DNA of 64,000 nt from an uncultured Clostridia bacterium (GTDB lineage Bacteria > Bacillota > Clostridia > Christensenellales > UBA1750): the NCBI GenBank assembly GCA_947625765.1, contig CANQPP010000005.1, forward strand, positions 10,656-74,655, in the 5' to 3' direction. Below are positions 1 to 63,263 of the stretch, piece after piece (the stretch's first letter is position 1; every line of letters begins with the position of its first letter). The notes beneath the pieces were generated by a model. It did not search any database. It was given only the letters and a program-made list of their open reading frames with translations, and was not told the origin of the DNA. A program made the position numbers and the translations under genes.

Positions 1-267
1 GAGCGCGTCCAGTATGGCCACGGAGGTGTGGGTGTAGGCCGCGGGGTTGATGACGATGGCGTCCTTCTTTCCGTAGGCAGCCTGGATGGCGTCCACGATG
101 GCGCCCTCGTGGTTGGACTGGAAGAACTCCACGTCCTCCACGCCCAGCTCCTTGCAGCAAGAACGGATATAGGCGAGCAGCTGCTCGTAGCTCTGCTCCC
201 CGTAAAGTCCCTTTTCGCGGATGCCCAGCATGTTGATGTTGGGCCCGTTAATGACCAGCAGCTTCAT
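1..267 (-). CDS. aroQ: Type II 3-dehydroquinate dehydratase, N-terminal part only (runs off the window)
   Basis: Own translation from ATG at 267 gives MKLLVINGPNINMLGIREKGLYGEQSYEQLLAYI...SNHEGAIVDAIQ...INPAAYTHTSVAILDAL, which matches type II dehydroquinase. It overlaps the aroE::aroK stop by 20 nt. Confidence 0.85.
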   Translation of the reverse strand, partial: MKLLVINGPNINMLGIREKGLYGEQSYEQLLAYIRSCCKELGVEDVEFFQSNHEGAIVDAIQAAYGKKDAIVINPAAYTHTSVAILDAL

Positions 268-1486
268 AAAATGCCTCCATCGCGGCCTTCGCCGCGTTCT
301 CTATGGTCGTATCGTTTTGGATCGTCCCATGGGCAAAGCGGGCATAGAGCGGGTCCCTTTTGGCGTGCATCGCGCGCAGGGCGGCCAGATCGCGGGAAAG
401 TGGCCGCCCCTCCATGCTGAGCATCTCCAGCGGCCGCTCCACGCGGATGAGGTAGCCGTTCTGCCGCAGATGGGCGTAGTTCTCCTCCCGTATGACCACG
501 CCGCCGCCGGTGGAGATCACCTTGCCGGACAGCTTGCCGAAGTCCGCCAGCACCTGGGATTCCAGCCGCCGGAACCATTCCTCGCCGTATTTTGCGAAGA
601 TATCCGGGATGGACATGCCCGCCCTGCGCACGATCTCCTCGTCCGCGTCCAGCGTCTCCCGGCCCAGGGCCGCGGCCGCGGCGCGCCCGATGGAGCTCTT
701 GCCGCTGCCGGGCATCCCGATGAGGATGAGGTTCATCATGGTGGCGCGCATGCTCTGCGTCACCCGCCCGATCTCGCCTTCCGGCAGCGCTTTGCCCGTG
801 AACAGCTCGCAGGCCCGCTTGGCCTGTGCCACCAGCATGGACAGCCCGCCCGCGTTGGGAAGGCCCAGCGCCTCCGCCTGCAGCAGCAGCGCGGTGCGCG
901 CGGGGTTGTAGATCACGTCCAGCACGCCCTCCAGCGCGGGGAAGCGGGCAAGGTCCACGGGGCTTTCCCCGTTGCCGGGATACATGCCCACGGGCGTTGT
1001 GTTGATGAGGATCTGGGCGTCCCTGTGGGCGTCCAGGTCGTTATAGGTCACGGGGCCCTTACGGGAGACCACGATCGTCTCCCGCGCCCCGTGTTTTTTC
1101 AGCATGGCGCGGGCGGTGAGGCTCGTCCCCCCGCTGCCCAGCACCAGCGCCTTCTTGCCCTTGAGGACCACGCCCAGCAGGCCCGCCATGTGCTCCATGC
1201 CGTACAGGTCCGTGTTGTAGCCGCTCAAACTCCCGTCCTTTTCCCGCACGATGGTGTTGACCGAGCCGATGGACAGCGCCTCGTCGGAGATGCGCGCTAA
1301 ATACGGCATCACCGCCTGCTTGTAGGGGATGGTGACGTTCAGGCCCTTGAAGTCGCCCGTGGTCAGCAGCTCGCCCAGCTTTTGAGGCGGGGTCGGGTAG
1401 AGCCTGTAATCGTAGTCGGCCAGCGCCTCATGGATGGGCACGGAATAGCTGTGGCCCAGCTTTTCGCCGATCAGTCCGTATTCCAT
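248..1486 (-). CDS. aroE/aroK: Bifunctional shikimate dehydrogenase / shikimate kinase fusion
   Basis: One 412-aa frame. The N-terminal half (GLIGEKLGHSYSVPIHE...NVTIPYKQ...NTDLYG) is AroE. The C-terminal ~170 aa (MNLILIGMPGSGKSSIGR...LDADEEI) is a P-loop shikimate kinase. Confidence 0.9.
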   Translation of the reverse strand: MEYGLIGEKLGHSYSVPIHEALADYDYRLYPTPPQKLGELLTTGDFKGLNVTIPYKQAVMPYLARISDEALSIGSVNTIVREKDGSLSGYNTDLYGMEHMAGLLGVVLKGKKALVLGSGGTSLTARAMLKKHGARETIVVSRKGPVTYNDLDAHRDAQILINTTPVGMYPGNGESPVDLARFPALEGVLDVIYNPARTALLLQAEALGLPNAGGLSMLVAQAKRACELFTGKALPEGEIGRVTQSMRATMMNLILIGMPGSGKSSIGRAAAAALGRETLDADEEIVRRAGMSIPDIFAKYGEEWFRRLESQVLADFGKLSGKVISTGGGVVIREENYAHLRQNGYLIRVERPLEMLSMEGRPLSRDLAALRAMHAKRDPLYARFAHGTIQNDTTIENAAKAAMEAFYEAAGH

Positions 1487-6997: not shown

Positions 6998-7013
6998 AGG
7001 ATCTCTCCTCCCG

Positions 7014-8021
7014 TCAGTCGCGCACCGCGTAGGGCAGTATCTTCTCCAGCCTGCGCATCATGTCGTCGAAGGCCTCGGGCGTCAGGGACTGCGGGCCGTC
7101 GCACAGGGCGTGGGCGGGATCGTTGTGCACCTCCACGATCAGGCCGTCCGCGCCGGCAGCCGCGGCCGCGATGGCCAGGGGCTTGACCAGGTAGGAAGCG
7201 CCGGTTGCGTGGCTGGGGTCCACCACGATGGGCAGGTGGGTCAGGCCGCGCAGGACGGGGATGGCGGAAAGGTCCAGCGTGTTGCGGGTGTAGGTCTCGA
7301 AGGTGCGGATGCCGCGCTCGCAGAGGATCACCTGCTCGTTGCCGCCGGCCATGATGTACTCGGCGCTCATGAGCAGCTCCTGCAGCGTGTTGGCCAGGCC
7401 GCGCTTGAGCAGGATGGGCTTGCGCAGCGTGCCCAGCTGCTTGAGCAGCTCGAAGTTCTGCATGTTGCGCGCGCCCACCTGGATCACGTCCACTTCCTCG
7501 AACAGGGGCAGGGTAGCCGCGTCCATGATCTCGGTCACGATGGGCATGCCGGTCTCGCGCTTGGCCTCCAGCAGCAGCTCGATGCCGCGGCCGTGCAGGC
7601 CCTGGAAGGCGTAGGGCGAGGTGCGGGGCTTGAACGCGCCGCCGCGCAGCATGGTCGCGCCGGAGGCCTTGACCGCCTTGGCCACCTGGATGATCTGCTC
7701 CTCGCTCTCCACGGAGCAGGGGCCCGCGATCACCTGGAAGTTGCCGCCGCCGATCTTGACGCCGCCGATGTCGATCACGGTGTCGTCGGGATGGAACTTG
7801 CGGTTGGCGTTCTTGAAGGGCTCCTGGATGCGCTTTACGTCCTCCACGATGTCCAGGGCGCGGATCACGTCCATATCCACGCGGGTGGTGTCGCCCACCA
7901 GGCCGATGATGGTCTGGTTCGCGCCTACGGAAACGTGGGTCTCCAGGCCCATGGAATGGAACCAGTTGGTCAGGGCTTCCATCTGCCGGGTATCGGGGTT
8001 GTTCTTCAGCAATACGACCAT
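7014..8021 (-). CDS. aroF: 3-deoxy-7-phosphoheptulonate (DAHP) synthase, type I-beta, with an N-terminal regulatory-like extension
   Basis: 335 aa with IAGPCSVESEEQ...LRGGAFKPRTSPY...VDPSHATG. RBS GAAGGAGG lies upstream of the ATG at 8021. Confidence 0.9.
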   Translation of the reverse strand: MVVLLKNNPDTRQMEALTNWFHSMGLETHVSVGANQTIIGLVGDTTRVDMDVIRALDIVEDVKRIQEPFKNANRKFHPDDTVIDIGGVKIGGGNFQVIAGPCSVESEEQIIQVAKAVKASGATMLRGGAFKPRTSPYAFQGLHGRGIELLLEAKRETGMPIVTEIMDAATLPLFEEVDVIQVGARNMQNFELLKQLGTLRKPILLKRGLANTLQELLMSAEYIMAGGNEQVILCERGIRTFETYTRNTLDLSAIPVLRGLTHLPIVVDPSHATGASYLVKPLAIAAAAAGADGLIVEVHNDPAHALCDGPQSLTPEAFDDMMRRLEKILPYAVRD

Positions 8022-8087
8022 CGTGTTTTTCCTCCTTCGGAAGGTCTTTCGTTCGGGGTTGATTCCGTATGGGTCAGGGCCGCGGTC

Positions 8088-8130
8088 ATGAAAGAAGGCT
8101 CCTTTGCAGTTTCACCGCAAGGGAGCCTTT
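8088..8130 (-). terminator. Attenuator-type intrinsic terminator candidate in the aro leader
   Basis: The minus-strand RNA AAGGCUCC(C)UUGCGG-UGAAA-CUGCAA(A)GGAGCCUU forms 8+6 bp with a 1x1 mismatch, followed by CUUUCAU. It lies 70 nt upstream of the aroF RBS. Confidence 0.5.
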
Positions 8131-8170
8131 GTTTTTCCGCCTTCCCGTTTTCCGGGGCTCGGTGGGCTTT

Positions 8171-8284
8171 TCAGCCCTGGCTGGACGCGCTCTCGTTTTC
8201 AGCGAAACTCAAACAAACCTTACCCGCAAAGCCGGTAAAGTAAAAGTAATAATAAAAGTTCGCCGAAACTTCCCTGCGCAGCAT
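8171..8284 (-). CDS. Aromatic (Phe/Tyr-rich) leader peptide, 37 aa: MLRREVSANFYYYFYFTGFAGKVCLSFAENESASSQG
   Basis: ATG at 8284, TGA at 8171-8173, with RBS GGAAAGGAGAGG 11 nt upstream. Codons 10-16 are TTT TAT TAT TAC TTT TAC TTT. The ORF lies between a promoter-like element and the aro/phe/tyr operon and is below the ORF-track size cut-off. Confidence 0.6.
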   Translation of the reverse strand: MLRREVSANFYYYFYFTGFAGKVCLSFAENESASSQG

Positions 8285-8323
8285 TTAAGTCCAGGCCTCT
8301 CCTTTCCTCGGAAGATCATGCCT

Positions 8324-8351
8324 ATCATAGCACAGTTTTTTCCCGCTGTAA
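8324..8351 (-). promoter_or_regulatory. Sigma-A type promoter candidate for the aro leader/operon
   Basis: On the minus strand: TTACAG (8346-8351), 16-nt spacer, TGc-TATGAT (8324-8329, extended -10). Confidence 0.5.
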
Positions 8352-8531
8352 AGGGTGTGCGGAAGAAGTTTTCATTTGTAACGCATCCTATGCCCTTCCG
8401 AGAGGGAAAAAACCCACTTTTTGCAACGGACTTGCCCCTTTCGCCGTTCTATGGTACGATAAAGTCTATTCAAAAGACGGGATGCCTTTTGTCCCGCTTC
8501 CCTTTGACCGCGAAAGGAGCGTGCCCGCTCG

Positions 8532-10628
8532 ATGAAACCGTTCCTGGCCGTTTTTGTTTGTTTCTGTCTTGCCTTTAGCCTCTGCGCCTGCGAGGGGCTC
8601 GTTCCGTCGCAGACGCCCGCGGAAAGCCCCGCCGCCTCCTCCCGGCAGCTGACGATCACGGACGAGGACCGTCAGACCGAGATCGGCCCCACCGCCTGCC
8701 GCATCGTGTTCGGCGAGCAGGGCGCCGCGGCGGACGGCGGCTCCCACGTGCAGGTGGACGGCGGCGTGGTGCGCATCACCGGGCCCGGGCAATACGTGCT
8801 GGAAGGGGCCTGCGAAAACGGCCGCGTGCTGGTGGACGCGGGCAAGGACGACCTGGTGCAGCTGTTCCTGAACGGGCTTTCCCTGCAAAGCGCGGACGGC
8901 CCCTGCATCTGGGCCAGCCGCGTGGAAAAAATGGTGGTAACGCTCTGCGAGGGCACTGAAAATACGCTGACCGACGGCAGCGCCTACGCGAACGCGGACG
9001 CGGAGGACGCGCCCACCGCCGCCCTGTTCTGCCAGGACGATATGACGCTGAACGGCGAGGGCGTCCTGAATGTGCAGGGCAATTTTAAGAACGGCATCGC
9101 CTCGAAGGACGACCTGCTGATCCTGTCGGGGTCCTACACGGTCAGCGCCGCGAACGACGCCGTGCGCGGCCGCGATTCCCTGTCCGTCGCGGGCGGGAGC
9201 TTCACGCTGGAGGCGGTGGACGACTGCCTGGTCTCCAACAACGACGAGGATGCGAACAAGGGATGGGTGCTGCTGACCGGCGGCACGTTCGACTTAACGG
9301 CGGGCAGCGACGCGGTGCAGGCCGAGACCACGCTGGACATCTCCGGCGGCGAGTTCCGCATCGTCTCGGGCGGCGGCGCGGCTGCGGGCGAGGCGGCGGC
9401 GAACGACTCCTCCAGCCGGAAGGGCTTAAAGGCCGGCGGTGACCTCACGATCGAGGGCGGCCGCTTTGCGCTGGACTGCGCCGACGACGCCCTGCACGCG
9501 GGCGGCGGCGTGACGCTGGGCGGCGGCGAACTGGAAGTCGCCACCGGGGACGACGCCGTCCATGCCGACGGGACGCTCGCCATCCGGGGCGGGACGCTCA
9601 ACGTTACTTCCAGCCACGAAGGGCTGGAGGGGTGCGACGTGCACATCGAGGGCGGGCAGATCGAGCTCAACGCCCGGGACGACGGCATCAACGCGGCGGG
9701 CGGCTCGGACGGCGAGGACGCCTGGAGCGGCCCCTTCGGCGGGGACCGCTTCGCCGCGGGCGACCACAGCATCGTGATCAGCGGCGGCGAGCTGACCATC
9801 GTGACCGACGGCGACGGCCTGGATTCCAACGGCAACATCGAGATGAGCGGCGGCAGCGTGACCATCCACGGTCCCACGACCGGCGGCAACGGCTCGCTGG
9901 ACTTCGGCGGCAGCTTCCTGCTGTCGGGCGGCACGCTGGCCGCGGCGGGCAGCGGGGACATGCTGATGGCGCCGGACGAGGGCTCCGCACAGGCCACGCT
10001 GGTGGTGTACGCCACGACCTCCTTCCCCGCCGGGGAAACGGTGACGCTCGCGGACGACCAGGGCCAGAGCCTGCTGTCGATGGAAACGCGGGTGGTCAGC
10101 CAGGCGCTGATCCTAAGCGCGCCGGGGATGAAGGAAGGAGCGGTCTGCACGCTGAACATCGGCCAAAAGCAGCTGGAGCTGACGCTCACGGGCGCGGTCA
10201 GCGCCTTCGACGAGACCGGCGCAGAGACGGAGATCCGCGGCATGGGCGGTTTCGGGAAGGGCGGCTTCGGCGGCTTTGGCGACGGAGGTTTCGGTGAAGG
10301 CGGCTTCGGCGGGCGCGGTCCCGGCGGCCGCGGCGACGGAGGAGCTCGTCCCGGCATGCCCCAGCAGCCGGATGGCGATGCTCCGTCCGACCTGCCGCAG
10401 CTGCCGGACGGCGAAGCGCCGGCCCTGCCTTCCGATATGCCGCAGCCACCCGATGGAGAAGCCCCAGCGCAACCTTCAGGCATGCCCCAGCCCCCGGAGG
10501 GGGACGCTCCCGCAGCTCCCTCCGATATGCCGCAAGCGCCGCAGGGCGAAGCTCCGGCCCAACCTTCGGGCGGCACGCCCCAGCCGCCGGACGGCAGCGC
10601 GCCCGCGACCCCTTCCCCCGCGCCTTGA
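8532..10628 (+). CDS. Secreted or lipoprotein-anchored Cthe_2159-like beta-helix carbohydrate-binding protein with Gly-rich and Pro-rich repeat tail
   Basis: Signal peptide MKPFLAVFVCFCLAFSLCAC. Reiterated motifs (NDAVRG, SDAVQA, DDALHAGG, GDDAVHADG, DDGINAAG, GDGLDSNG) are typical of the PF14262-type parallel beta-helix family. The C-terminus has GGFG repeats and about six 14-aa MPQPPDGEAPAQPSG repeats. Confidence 0.6.
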   Translation: MKPFLAVFVCFCLAFSLCACEGLVPSQTPAESPAASSRQLTITDEDRQTEIGPTACRIVFGEQGAAADGGSHVQVDGGVVRITGPGQYVLEGACENGRVLVDAGKDDLVQLFLNGLSLQSADGPCIWASRVEKMVVTLCEGTENTLTDGSAYANADAEDAPTAALFCQDDMTLNGEGVLNVQGNFKNGIASKDDLLILSGSYTVSAANDAVRGRDSLSVAGGSFTLEAVDDCLVSNNDEDANKGWVLLTGGTFDLTAGSDAVQAETTLDISGGEFRIVSGGGAAAGEAAANDSSSRKGLKAGGDLTIEGGRFALDCADDALHAGGGVTLGGGELEVATGDDAVHADGTLAIRGGTLNVTSSHEGLEGCDVHIEGGQIELNARDDGINAAGGSDGEDAWSGPFGGDRFAAGDHSIVISGGELTIVTDGDGLDSNGNIEMSGGSVTIHGPTTGGNGSLDFGGSFLLSGGTLAAAGSGDMLMAPDEGSAQATLVVYATTSFPAGETVTLADDQGQSLLSMETRVVSQALILSAPGMKEGAVCTLNIGQKQLELTLTGAVSAFDETGAETEIRGMGGFGKGGFGGFGDGGFGEGGFGGRGPGGRGDGGARPGMPQQPDGDAPSDLPQLPDGEAPALPSDMPQPPDGEAPAQPSGMPQPPEGDAPAAPSDMPQAPQGEAPAQPSGGTPQPPDGSAPATPSPAP

Positions 10629-28177: not shown

Positions 28178-28253
28178 GGGGCATTAGTACAGTTGGTAGT
28201 ACGCTACACTGGCAGTGTAGAGGTCAGGAGTTCGAGTCTCCTATGCTCCACCA
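28178..28253 (+). tRNA. tRNA-Ala (anticodon GGC), CCA encoded
   Basis: Hand-folded cloverleaf: acceptor GGGGCAT/ATGCTCC with the G3:U70 alanine identity pair, anticodon loop CTGGCAG, T-arm AGGAG-TTCGAGT-CTCCT. Confidence 0.9.
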
Positions 28254-58001: not shown

Positions 58002-58349
58002 GGGGGCGTACTGGTTTCGACGGGGGGCGCCGAGGACCGGCAAGCGAGCCGCGGACCCGCGACCGCGTATCAAGCGGGACAAAAAACAACTGACAACAAT
58101 AACGTAGCTATCGCGGCCTAAACCCCGCGACGTCGGCCCCAGGCCACCTGTAGCCTGGGTCACCGGCGCAAGAAATACAGGGACCGAACCCGCCTAAGCT
58201 TTGCGGCGGGCCGTACTTATGAAGCTACCCAGCCCCGTATCCTGCCGCCGGGAGACGGACGCCGGGGAATTTGAAACCAGCGGCTGCGCTCGGAGAAAGC
58301 CGATCTAAGGCCCTTTCGGACAGGGGTTCGACTCCCCTCGCCTCCACCA
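58002..58349 (+). ncRNA. ssrA: tmRNA (SsrA)
   Basis: 5' GGGGGCGTACTGGTTTCGACGGGG and 3' GGACAGGGGTTCGACTCCCCTCGCCTCCACCA form a tRNA-Ala-like acceptor with G3:U70. The tag frame at 58074-58121 (GCG GGA CAA AAA ACA ACT GAC AAC AAT AAC GTA GCT ATC GCG GCC TAA) encodes (A)GQKTTDNNNVAIAA*. Confidence 0.9.
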
Positions 58350-62894: not shown

Positions 62895-63263
62895 TATATG
62901 GAAAAGCGTCCAAGTTTTTACGCTTGAACGCCGTGGGCGAGCATCAGGATACTCCCGATTCGAGTATCTCTATTTTTGGAACGTCGCAGTTGATCTCCAT
63001 CAACGCCCCGGTTGGAAGTATGGTCATAGGCGTTCTGTGAATGTGATCCACATTTTCCAATATGACCATGTCCGGCCTATGCACTTCCTTGATTCCGAAA
63101 AGAGAGCCGCATTTCTGCGGCCCTCTCCACGTAGTTCGGTGCTTTGGCGGGCGTCGCCTCTCCCGCATCTCTCGGGTCTCCCCTGTCAGTACCATCGGCG
63201 TGTGGTCGCAACGAAATTTACCACCTCAAAGCACCTATCTATCCTACCAGTATTATAGCAGTC

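Follow-up and report, generated by a model that had tools for sequence, protein, structure and literature searches.

The stretch of DNA analysed here, 64,000 nucleotides of an uncultured Clostridia genome (the window, which always means the full 64-kb stretch), carries a leader element in front of aroF, the gene for 3-deoxy-D-arabino-heptulosonate 7-phosphate (DAHP) synthase. With a probability of roughly 80%, this element is a ribosome-mediated leader-peptide transcription attenuator, through which expression of the aroF-tyrA-aroB-aroA-aroC-pheA-aroE/K operon would depend on how much tRNA-Phe and tRNA-Tyr is charged. The assignment comes from sequence comparison, in which the leader open reading frame (ORF), the terminator and two alternative pairings are found to be conserved family-wide, and every sequence-level hallmark of the trpL, pheL and hisL attenuators that was tested is present, the weak U-tract of this genome being the one ambiguous case. 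That the leader is translated, that the ribosome stalls, that transcription terminates at the weak U-tract and that both amino acids elicit a response are predictions from these features. The original prediction, made from the letters of the window, had proposed a ribosome-mediated attenuator responding to phenylalanine (Phe) and tyrosine (Tyr), and this proposal is supported, since the leader ORF and its run of aromatic codons are conserved in relatives. All element coordinates refer to the minus strand unless given otherwise.

The short ORF has its own start codon, is led by a Shine-Dalgarno (SD) sequence and is located between a promoter-like site and the first structural gene. It had been described as running from 8284 to 8171, with a ribosome-binding site 11 nt upstream, aromatic residues at 9 of its 37 positions and no tryptophan (Trp), and both sequence and translation agree with this description. 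The seven consecutive Phe/Tyr codons claimed for codons 10-16 can be read at 8257-8237 (Table 1), and the resulting FYYYFYF is the sole run of at least five consecutive Phe/Tyr codons across the six frames of the window. The AT-rich island that had been noticed here is equally real, the leader region having a GC content of 45-48%, vs. 63.6% for the window. The run contains TTT and TAT, while the seven operon genes favour TTC (61, vs. 14 TTT) and TAC (58, vs. 12 TAT); the minor codons TTT and TAT within the run fit a constraint from RNA pairing (UACUUU with GGUAAG), slower decoding, or both. These clustered codons precede an operon that holds both pheA, encoding a chorismate mutase-prephenate dehydratase (CM-PDT), and tyrA. 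Profile matches agree with the earlier assignment of the operon to the shikimate pathway plus pheA and tyrA, and no trp genes were found by profile search among the operon genes from aroF to aroE-aroK.

Two sets of relatives were compared. The genome set consists of 80 species-level loci, nearly all clostridial, that encode AroF relatives with 65-77% identity, and makes up 81 regions together with the window; an independent metagenome set consists of 80 loci, for which 71 upstream regions were scored. A leader was counted where a short ORF upstream of aroF included at least five aromatic (F/Y) residues in eight, and the reverse strand served as the control. Such leaders are present in 61/81 genome regions (reverse strand, 6/81) and on 49/71 metagenome contigs (reverse strand, 3/71). 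An SD-like sequence lies ahead of 76 of the 81 distinct family leaders, and the aromatic run begins exactly 9 codons past the start in 39 of these 81, the window included. The leaders are 16-41 residues long (median 29), and their runs are composed of 262 Tyr, 241 Phe and a single Trp. Apart from the run, the peptides show little conservation beyond two motifs, A-A-E on its N-terminal side and G-K-A/V on its C-terminal side, each of which coincides with paired RNA segments.

A search of 185,579 species genomes for the 21-nt core motif GCAGCWGAATAYTTYTAYTTT gave 111 matches, the great majority of them from Clostridia. At 88 of these the ORF that follows is aroF, at three it is tyrA (L143, L156, and L172), at one pheA (L160) and at six an unrelated gene, the other 13 loci being truncated, so that aromatic biosynthesis genes follow 92 of the 98 matches with an identifiable ORF. 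The six unrelated matches (other phyla) are probably due to chance. The occurrence of the core before tyrA or pheA in a few genomes indicates that the attenuator has moved between aromatic biosynthesis genes. A covariance model was built from 29 leaders, the window among the seed, and has exactly one match in the window (8090-8286, 69 bits), which is there by construction because the window belongs to the seed. At E<=1e-4, matches directly upstream of aroF and on the same strand were obtained for 45/79 genome and 43/80 metagenome loci, many of them non-seed.

Between the leader and the structural gene lies a stable G+C-rich hairpin, 73 nt upstream of the aroF ATG. The original prediction had described a strong hairpin at 8095-8129 followed by CUUUCAU; the hairpin holds (15 bp, about -22 kcal/mol; -22.9 kcal/mol when computed as the 3:4 pairing), but the tail is a poor U-tract with about 4 U in 8 nt. 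The whole window leader folds more stably than shuffled sequences (z = -3.2). Among leader-bearing loci, 52 of 57 have a hairpin of -12 kcal/mol or lower (median -19.6) with a U-rich tail between leader and aroF, and these family terminators are mostly placed 15-90 nt ahead of the aroF ATG. RNAalifold, applied to a MAFFT alignment that was not fitted to structure, recovers the terminator helix with compensatory changes at 9/9 predicted pairs. In a model-based alignment of 46 leaders the 14-bp terminator helix is 88% paired, with all 14 pairs changed on both sides, and sliding the partners against each other cuts whole-structure pairing from 76% to 36-49%. Compensatory stem changes in relatives, a comparison which had been proposed along with the attenuator itself, are thus seen.

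The switch strand of the element is region 2, which may pair either with region 1 or with the terminator apex. Along with the 1:2 helix and the terminator, the minimum free energy (MFE) fold of the window has an inner hairpin, 8241-8231 with 8227-8217. The antiterminator (2:3) would instead consist of AGUUUCGCUG (8209-8200) paired with CGGUGAAACU (8117-8108), together with GAG (8194-8192) paired with CUC (8125-8123). The calculated energies are -14.8 to -18.3 kcal/mol for 1:2 and -15.8 kcal/mol for 2:3 (10 + 3 bp). Region 1 adjoins the aromatic run on its 5' side and overlaps the first run codon, so that stalling within the run would place the ribosome on top of it. The same arrangement recurs in the family, where the typical region 1 is UUUGCAGCUGAA (F-A-A-E codons), directly 5' of the run, and the typical region 2 is UUUUGCUGCAAA or UUUGGCUG, starting at a median of 24 nt downstream of the run. 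The typical terminator upper 5' arm and loop, CGCAGUGAAAC, is similar to region 1, and region 2 is therefore able to pair with either. The region 2 motif is conserved inside the ORF or past its stop codon (L038, L039, L075). The inner hairpin, CUUUACC/GGUAAGG in the window, is replaced in relatives by covarying CUUUGCC/GGCAAGG, CUAUUAC/GUAAUAG, AUCUAC/GUAGAU, and GCGGGU/ACCCGC, and its apical extensions vary (both by inspection). Its base pairing constrains the RNA and in this way accounts for the recurrent peptide motif G-K-A/V; possibly, it acts as a pause hairpin.

Regions 1 and 2 come in two register variants, a UUGGCUG type and a UUGCUGCAAA type, which neither MAFFT nor the covariance model reconciles. 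MAFFT plus RNAalifold on 29 leaders recovered the terminator only and was discarded as a test of the switch; per-locus RNAduplex energies, with shuffle and partner-swap controls, were used instead. Of the 52 loci, 48% have a 1:2 duplex stronger than its shuffles (p<=0.05), and the same percentage holds for 2:3. Native partners are better than between-locus swaps by 3.4 kcal/mol for 1:2 and 3.2 kcal/mol for 2:3 (z = -9.5 and -8.5), and 0/10,000 permutations were as good as the native set for either helix. Six composition or irrelevant-pair controls, drawn from reversed sequences and from the pairs region 2 vs. 3' arm, region 1 vs. 3, region 1 vs. 4 and SD region vs. 3, gave z values of -0.3 to -2.1. 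The region-2 segments used by the best 1:2 and the best 2:3 duplex overlap by at least 6 nt in 42/51 loci, vs. 25.5 expected, and in the family alignment 10 of the 13 pairs of the 1:2 helix are changed on both sides.

The terminator loops show the same dependence on region 2. They are complementary to its 5' part in a locus-specific manner, as in L016 (GUGAAAC/GUUUCAC) and L060 (CAAAUCA/CGAUUUG), and further covariation of loop and region 2 is seen in L068 (GCGAUACC/GGUAUCGC), in L032 (GCAAAAUACA/UGUAUUUUGC) and also in L047 and L051. The sequences offer no other reason for such a constraint on the loops than pairing with region 2. In the closest leader relative (L059), which has a similar C-terminal tail, a 12-bp 2:3 pairing is kept despite differences on both strands (by inspection). 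Of 47 loci, 32 have the leader stop codon inside region 2 or downstream of it, and in the other 15 it precedes region 2 by no more than 20 nt, a placement that would be expected if a ribosome that does not stall must neutralise region 2.

These results modify the pairings first drawn for the window. The 1:2 / 2:3 / 3:4 layout stands, being supported by locus-specific complementarity, but its strands had been assigned differently: the conserved partners are 8268-8256, 8210-8197, and 8117-8108. The segment GGCUUUGCGG (8233-8224) had been taken for a near copy of the terminator arm and is actually the apical part of the inner hairpin. The segment GGGCUGAAAAGCCC (8177-8164), regarded as the partner shared by both, forms a self-contained hairpin (-8.0 kcal/mol) in a stretch, 8177-8152, which in the 29-leader alignment occurs in the window only. 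The earlier pairings were rejected as a conserved switch, being weak (-9.8 kcal/mol for 8233-8224 with 8177-8164, and -8.6 kcal/mol for 8177-8164 with the terminator arm). Two small hairpins with GNRA-like loops lie between region 2 and the terminator, at 8164-8177 (GGGCU-GAAA-AGCCC) and at 8144-8156 (CCCG-GAAAA-CGGG). In the former, the stop codon straddles the stem-loop junction, with U8173 in the stem; this hairpin and the 5' arm of the latter fall in the window-only stretch.

In the proposed mechanism, transcription would start near 8317 and the 37-codon leader would be translated. A shortage of Phe-tRNA or Tyr-tRNA would make the ribosome stall in FYYYFYF, cover region 1 (8268-8256) and open the inner hairpin. 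Region 2 (8210-8197), freed in this way, would capture the emerging terminator apex and loop (8117-8108, plus 8125-8123), so that the 3:4 hairpin would be blocked and RNA polymerase would continue into aroF. When both aminoacyl-tRNAs are plentiful, the ribosome would pass region 2 and reach the stop codon (8173-8171), leaving region 2 either occluded or re-paired with region 1; the terminator (8129-8095) would then form, and transcription would end near 8090. This layout departs from the textbook one in three respects: region 1 is located 5' of the run, the run lies partly in the inner hairpin, and the antiterminator invades the terminator loop. One may further speculate that stalling is aided by the nascent chain, with its conserved aromatic residues.

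Several observations weigh against the attenuator. The U-tract of the window, UUCUUUCAU, is interrupted and poorer than that of nearly all relatives, most of which have 5-8 U in 8 nt, and intrinsic termination may consequently be inefficient there. The duplexes of the window taken alone are no better than shuffles (1:2, z = -1.1; 2:3, z = +0.9). Column-wise, the 1:2 helix is only about 62% paired, because the alignment mixes the two register variants. The stop codon of the window leader lies 24 nt past the end of region 2, so that a ribosome at termination would be off region 2 and the 1:2 helix would have to re-form behind it. When the leader is folded with the ribosome footprint masked, the terminator 5' arm pairs with the leader SD region and not with region 2. 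The two are complementary in the window (8299-8315 with 8112-8125, 12 bp, purine/pyrimidine); as a family feature this pairing was rejected, since it is not conserved (swap test, z = -0.33), and it is treated as incidental. Finally, no AroF relative above 77% identity was found (the exact-protein look-up was empty, the genome scan reached at most 77% and the metagenome scan 75%), which places window-specific stems beyond the reach of close comparison.

The weak U-tract bears most directly on the possibility that ORF and hairpin are regulatory in this genome without intrinsic termination, that is, through Rho, through mRNA stability or processing, or through control of aroF translation by stalling or passage of the ribosome. 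The distance of the hairpin from the aroF ATG (73 nt, with more folded sequence between them) and the ability of the terminator 5' arm to pair with the leader SD region point the same way. Nevertheless, a canonical U-tract immediately follows the homologous hairpin in nearly all relatives, the aroF SD (8037-8031) lies outside the hairpin of the window, and the SD:arm pairing is not shared by the family, so that this alternative, although the main rival, is judged unlikely. A different class of explanation makes the structure a ligand- or protein-binding RNA (a riboswitch, or a target of a TRAP/PyrR-like protein) and the ORF incidental. Strong conservation at the RNA level is in keeping with it, including a region 2 that persists past the stop codon in three leaders and peptide motifs (AAE, GKA) which base pairing accounts for. 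It leaves unexplained that the start codon, the SD (76/81), the frame and the 9-codon spacing are conserved, that the run is almost purely made of Phe/Tyr codons and that the stop codon is consistently placed relative to region 2. Moreover, scans of the window and of 20 canonical members yielded no Rfam riboswitch, T-box or protein-binding leader above threshold, and no conserved multi-stem ligand pocket exists past the simple alternative hairpins; a binding RNA is thus very unlikely.

Conservation of an aromatic-rich peptide with recurrent motifs (AAEYFYF and GK[AV]) could also suggest that the product itself matters, either as a small functional hydrophobic peptide or as an arrest peptide sensing free Phe/Tyr, as TnaC senses Trp. 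This is very unlikely, given that the peptides differ widely in sequence beyond the F/Y run and range in length from 16 to 41 residues, that the recurrent motifs coincide with paired RNA segments and that sensing at the codon level fully accounts for the terminator/antiterminator architecture. There is, lastly, chance: an AT-rich intergenic stretch with a fortuitous ORF and hairpin, a view to which the non-significant duplex statistics of the window alone would lend themselves. The run is unique in the window, a promoter-like site, an SD and a hairpin accompany it, and the species-level genomes and metagenome contigs that share the element together number well over 100; the comparative data effectively refute chance. 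The leader-peptide attenuator remains the preferred explanation.

Comparison with known RNA families gave no counterpart. In Firmicutes, it is usually the T-box (RF00230) that links the aminoacylation state of tRNA to a terminator/antiterminator switch upstream of amino acid genes. It differs from the window element in that it senses uncharged tRNA directly, without translation. A T-box or other riboswitch covering the region, which would have spoken against the original prediction, was not found: no Rfam model, whether T-box, riboswitch or TRAP/PyrR-type leader, matches over the window element at E<=10, and 20 canonical family members have no Rfam match at gathering score (GA), T-box RF00230 included. 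The canonical member L038 scores 15.8 bits with Phe_leader (RF01859; GA 55) and 17.4 bits with His_leader (GA 49). The trpB ncRNA motif (RF04312), which is an orphan candidate for a riboswitch or attenuator in Firmicutes, was also considered. Its match at L038 1920-2024 (31.5 bits vs. GA 59, E = 0.009) was dismissed, because it rests on the terminator and lacks the model's first stem, which is deleted. Likewise, T-boxes do not appear to act as substitute regulators, only one being present in 20 related aroF loci, mostly ones without a leader-model match. That T-box (L067, 5259-5503) is located downstream of aroF.

The closest mechanistic models are pheL-pheA and trpL of E. coli, with which the element shares an SD-led short ORF with tandem end-product codons, mutually exclusive 1:2, 2:3, and 3:4 hairpins and a putative intrinsic terminator before the first biosynthetic gene. 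There is no similarity to them in sequence or at the level of models. The run of the window family mixes Phe and Tyr about equally, its target is the common shikimate pathway plus tyrA and pheA, its region 1 is placed on the 5' side of the aromatic codons, the last of which are within the inner hairpin, and the antiterminator invades the upper arm and loop of the terminator.

The original prediction had regarded a leader-peptide attenuator as unusual in Firmicutes, which was overstated. The his leader of bacilli (PMC2965389) and the Leu-rich ilv leader of Staphylococcus aureus (PMC5794164) are leader-peptide attenuators of this phylum, and the predicted leader uORFC-13-1 is known from Acholeplasma (Brewer et al., 2021; PMC8632094). 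Leader-peptide attenuators are therefore not confined to Proteobacteria. The his and ilv leaders share mechanism class and phylum with the window element and differ in amino acid specificity, targets and sequences. The uORFC-13-1 motif is a predicted upstream ORF (uORF) with Phe codons, directly followed by an intrinsic terminator and found exclusively before aroF; reports of it are confined to Acholeplasma and unassigned environmental sequences, with 24 representatives, and its U-run codes for at least one Phe (PMC8632094). The window fits this description (a Phe-codon uORF directly before a terminator, upstream of aroF), and Acholeplasma is a Firmicutes-related lineage; neither of the two families matches any Rfam 15 model.

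The novelty of a Phe/Tyr leader at aroF is also tempered by the aroR leader of Corynebacterium glutamicum, which is covered in a review. According to that review, aroR (F-Y-F) precedes aroF, and ribosome stalling raises transcription (Neshat et al., 2014, via PMC11802643); limitation of Phe is described there as effective and availability of Tyr as without effect. The two systems share a leader peptide with Phe/Tyr codons upstream of a DAHP synthase gene. They differ in that aroR is actinobacterial with a motif of three codons, and the run in the window has seven. The aroR transcript is reportedly leaderless, while the window leader has an SD. Upstream ORFs of aroF were already known in Corynebacterium and Acholeplasma, and the Clostridial family is absent from the catalogues searched; no description of it was found in the literature searched, which excludes most subscription journals.

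The element is real and conserved, and it probably represents a large uncatalogued family of a well-known kind, the mechanism itself being textbook. A further-reaching proposal, given somewhat less than an even chance, is that a large uncatalogued family of dual Phe/Tyr attenuators exists in Clostridia (Oscillospiraceae, Acutalibacteraceae, Anaerovoracaceae, Lachnospiraceae and others) and that, in many gut and rumen anaerobes, it and not T-boxes provides the main control of the shikimate/Phe/Tyr operon. For many gut and rumen Clostridia that are uncultured or have received little study, the model offers a concrete and testable account of how the synthesis of aromatic amino acids is controlled, and, if true, a single leader peptide would jointly sense the charging of Phe- and Tyr-tRNA. 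For annotation, a leader ORF and attenuator would take the place of an empty 510-nt intergenic region, and the absence of the element from Rfam 15 marks a gap in the RNA family databases. Leader-peptide attenuation is apparently commoner in Firmicutes than usually assumed, and the family offers a compact Phe/Tyr-responsive genetic part.

Table 1. Features of the aroF leader region, in transcriptional order, with window coordinates.
Feature	Position	Strand	Details
Promoter-like site, sigma-70-type	8324..8352	-	-35 TTTACA (8352-8347), 17-nt spacer, extended -10 TGcTATGAT (8332-8324)
Shine-Dalgarno of leader ORF	8296..8304	-	AAGGAGAGG; 11 nt upstream of ATG
Leader ORF, 37 codons + stop	8171..8284	-	Product MLRREVSANFYYYFYFTGFAGKVCLSFAENESASSQG; ATG 8284, TGA 8173-8171
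Region 1, 5' strand of 1:2 helix	8256..8268	-	UUUCGGCGAACUU; 13-bp MFE helix with 8210-8197
Candidate regulatory codon run FYYYFYF, codons 10-16	8237..8257	-	TTT TAT TAT TAC TTT TAC TTT
Inner hairpin	8217..8241	-	Last run codons + ACC (ACUUUACC, 8241-8234) with GGUAAGGU (8224-8217); MFE
Region 2, switch strand	8197..8210	-	GAGUUUCGCUGAAA; partners: region 1, or terminator apex
Terminator hairpin (3:4)	8095..8129	-	AAGGCUCCCUUGCGGU / ACUGCAAAGGAGCCUU, 15 bp, loop GAA; in MFE fold
Region 3 core (terminator upper 5' arm, loop, first 3'-arm bases)	8108..8117	-	CGGUGAAACU; predicted antiterminator target, with CUC 8125-8123
U-rich tail	8088..8096	-	UUCUUUCAU; about 4 U in 8 nt past stem
aroF (DAHP synthase), operon gene 1	7014..8021	-	NCBIfam NF006421, 490 bits

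The leader occupies a 510-nt intergenic gap that separates aroF (ATG 8021, minus strand) from a divergently transcribed gene (ATG 8532, plus strand). On the minus strand, the gap comprises, in this order, the promoter-like site, the SD, the leader ORF, two small hairpins, the 15-bp hairpin, and the SD and start of aroF. The promoter-like site had been given as TTACAG with a 16-nt spacer; this is the same site as TTTACA with a spacer of 17 nt, read one base over. A promoter scan for TTTACA-17-TATGAT with an upstream TG gave a single match in 7000-9500, vs. 0.2 expected, and the start of transcription is predicted near 8317. Downstream, the operon extends to position 248, and its genes, all of which have profile matches as aroF does, are tightly packed, with overlaps or with gaps of at most 76 nt. 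The last of them in the window (248-1486, minus strand) encodes a fused shikimate dehydrogenase-shikimate kinase (aroE-aroK) of 412 residues. The portion of the operon covered by the window, which stops close to the window edge, shows no dehydroquinase gene (aroD/aroQ).

The divergent neighbour (8532-10628, plus strand) begins with MKPFLAVFVCFCLAFSLCACEG, a lipoprotein-like signal peptide, and shares the intergenic region with the aro leader; a small hairpin (8478-8496, plus strand) is located in its 5' region. Elsewhere in the window, matches at the Rfam gathering level correspond to a transfer-messenger RNA (tmRNA; 58002-58349, plus strand, 154.5 bits), a tRNA (28178-28250, plus strand, 66.7 bits) and, at 63139-63234 on the minus strand (51.7 bits), a skipping-rope RNA, a structured RNA motif of unknown function.

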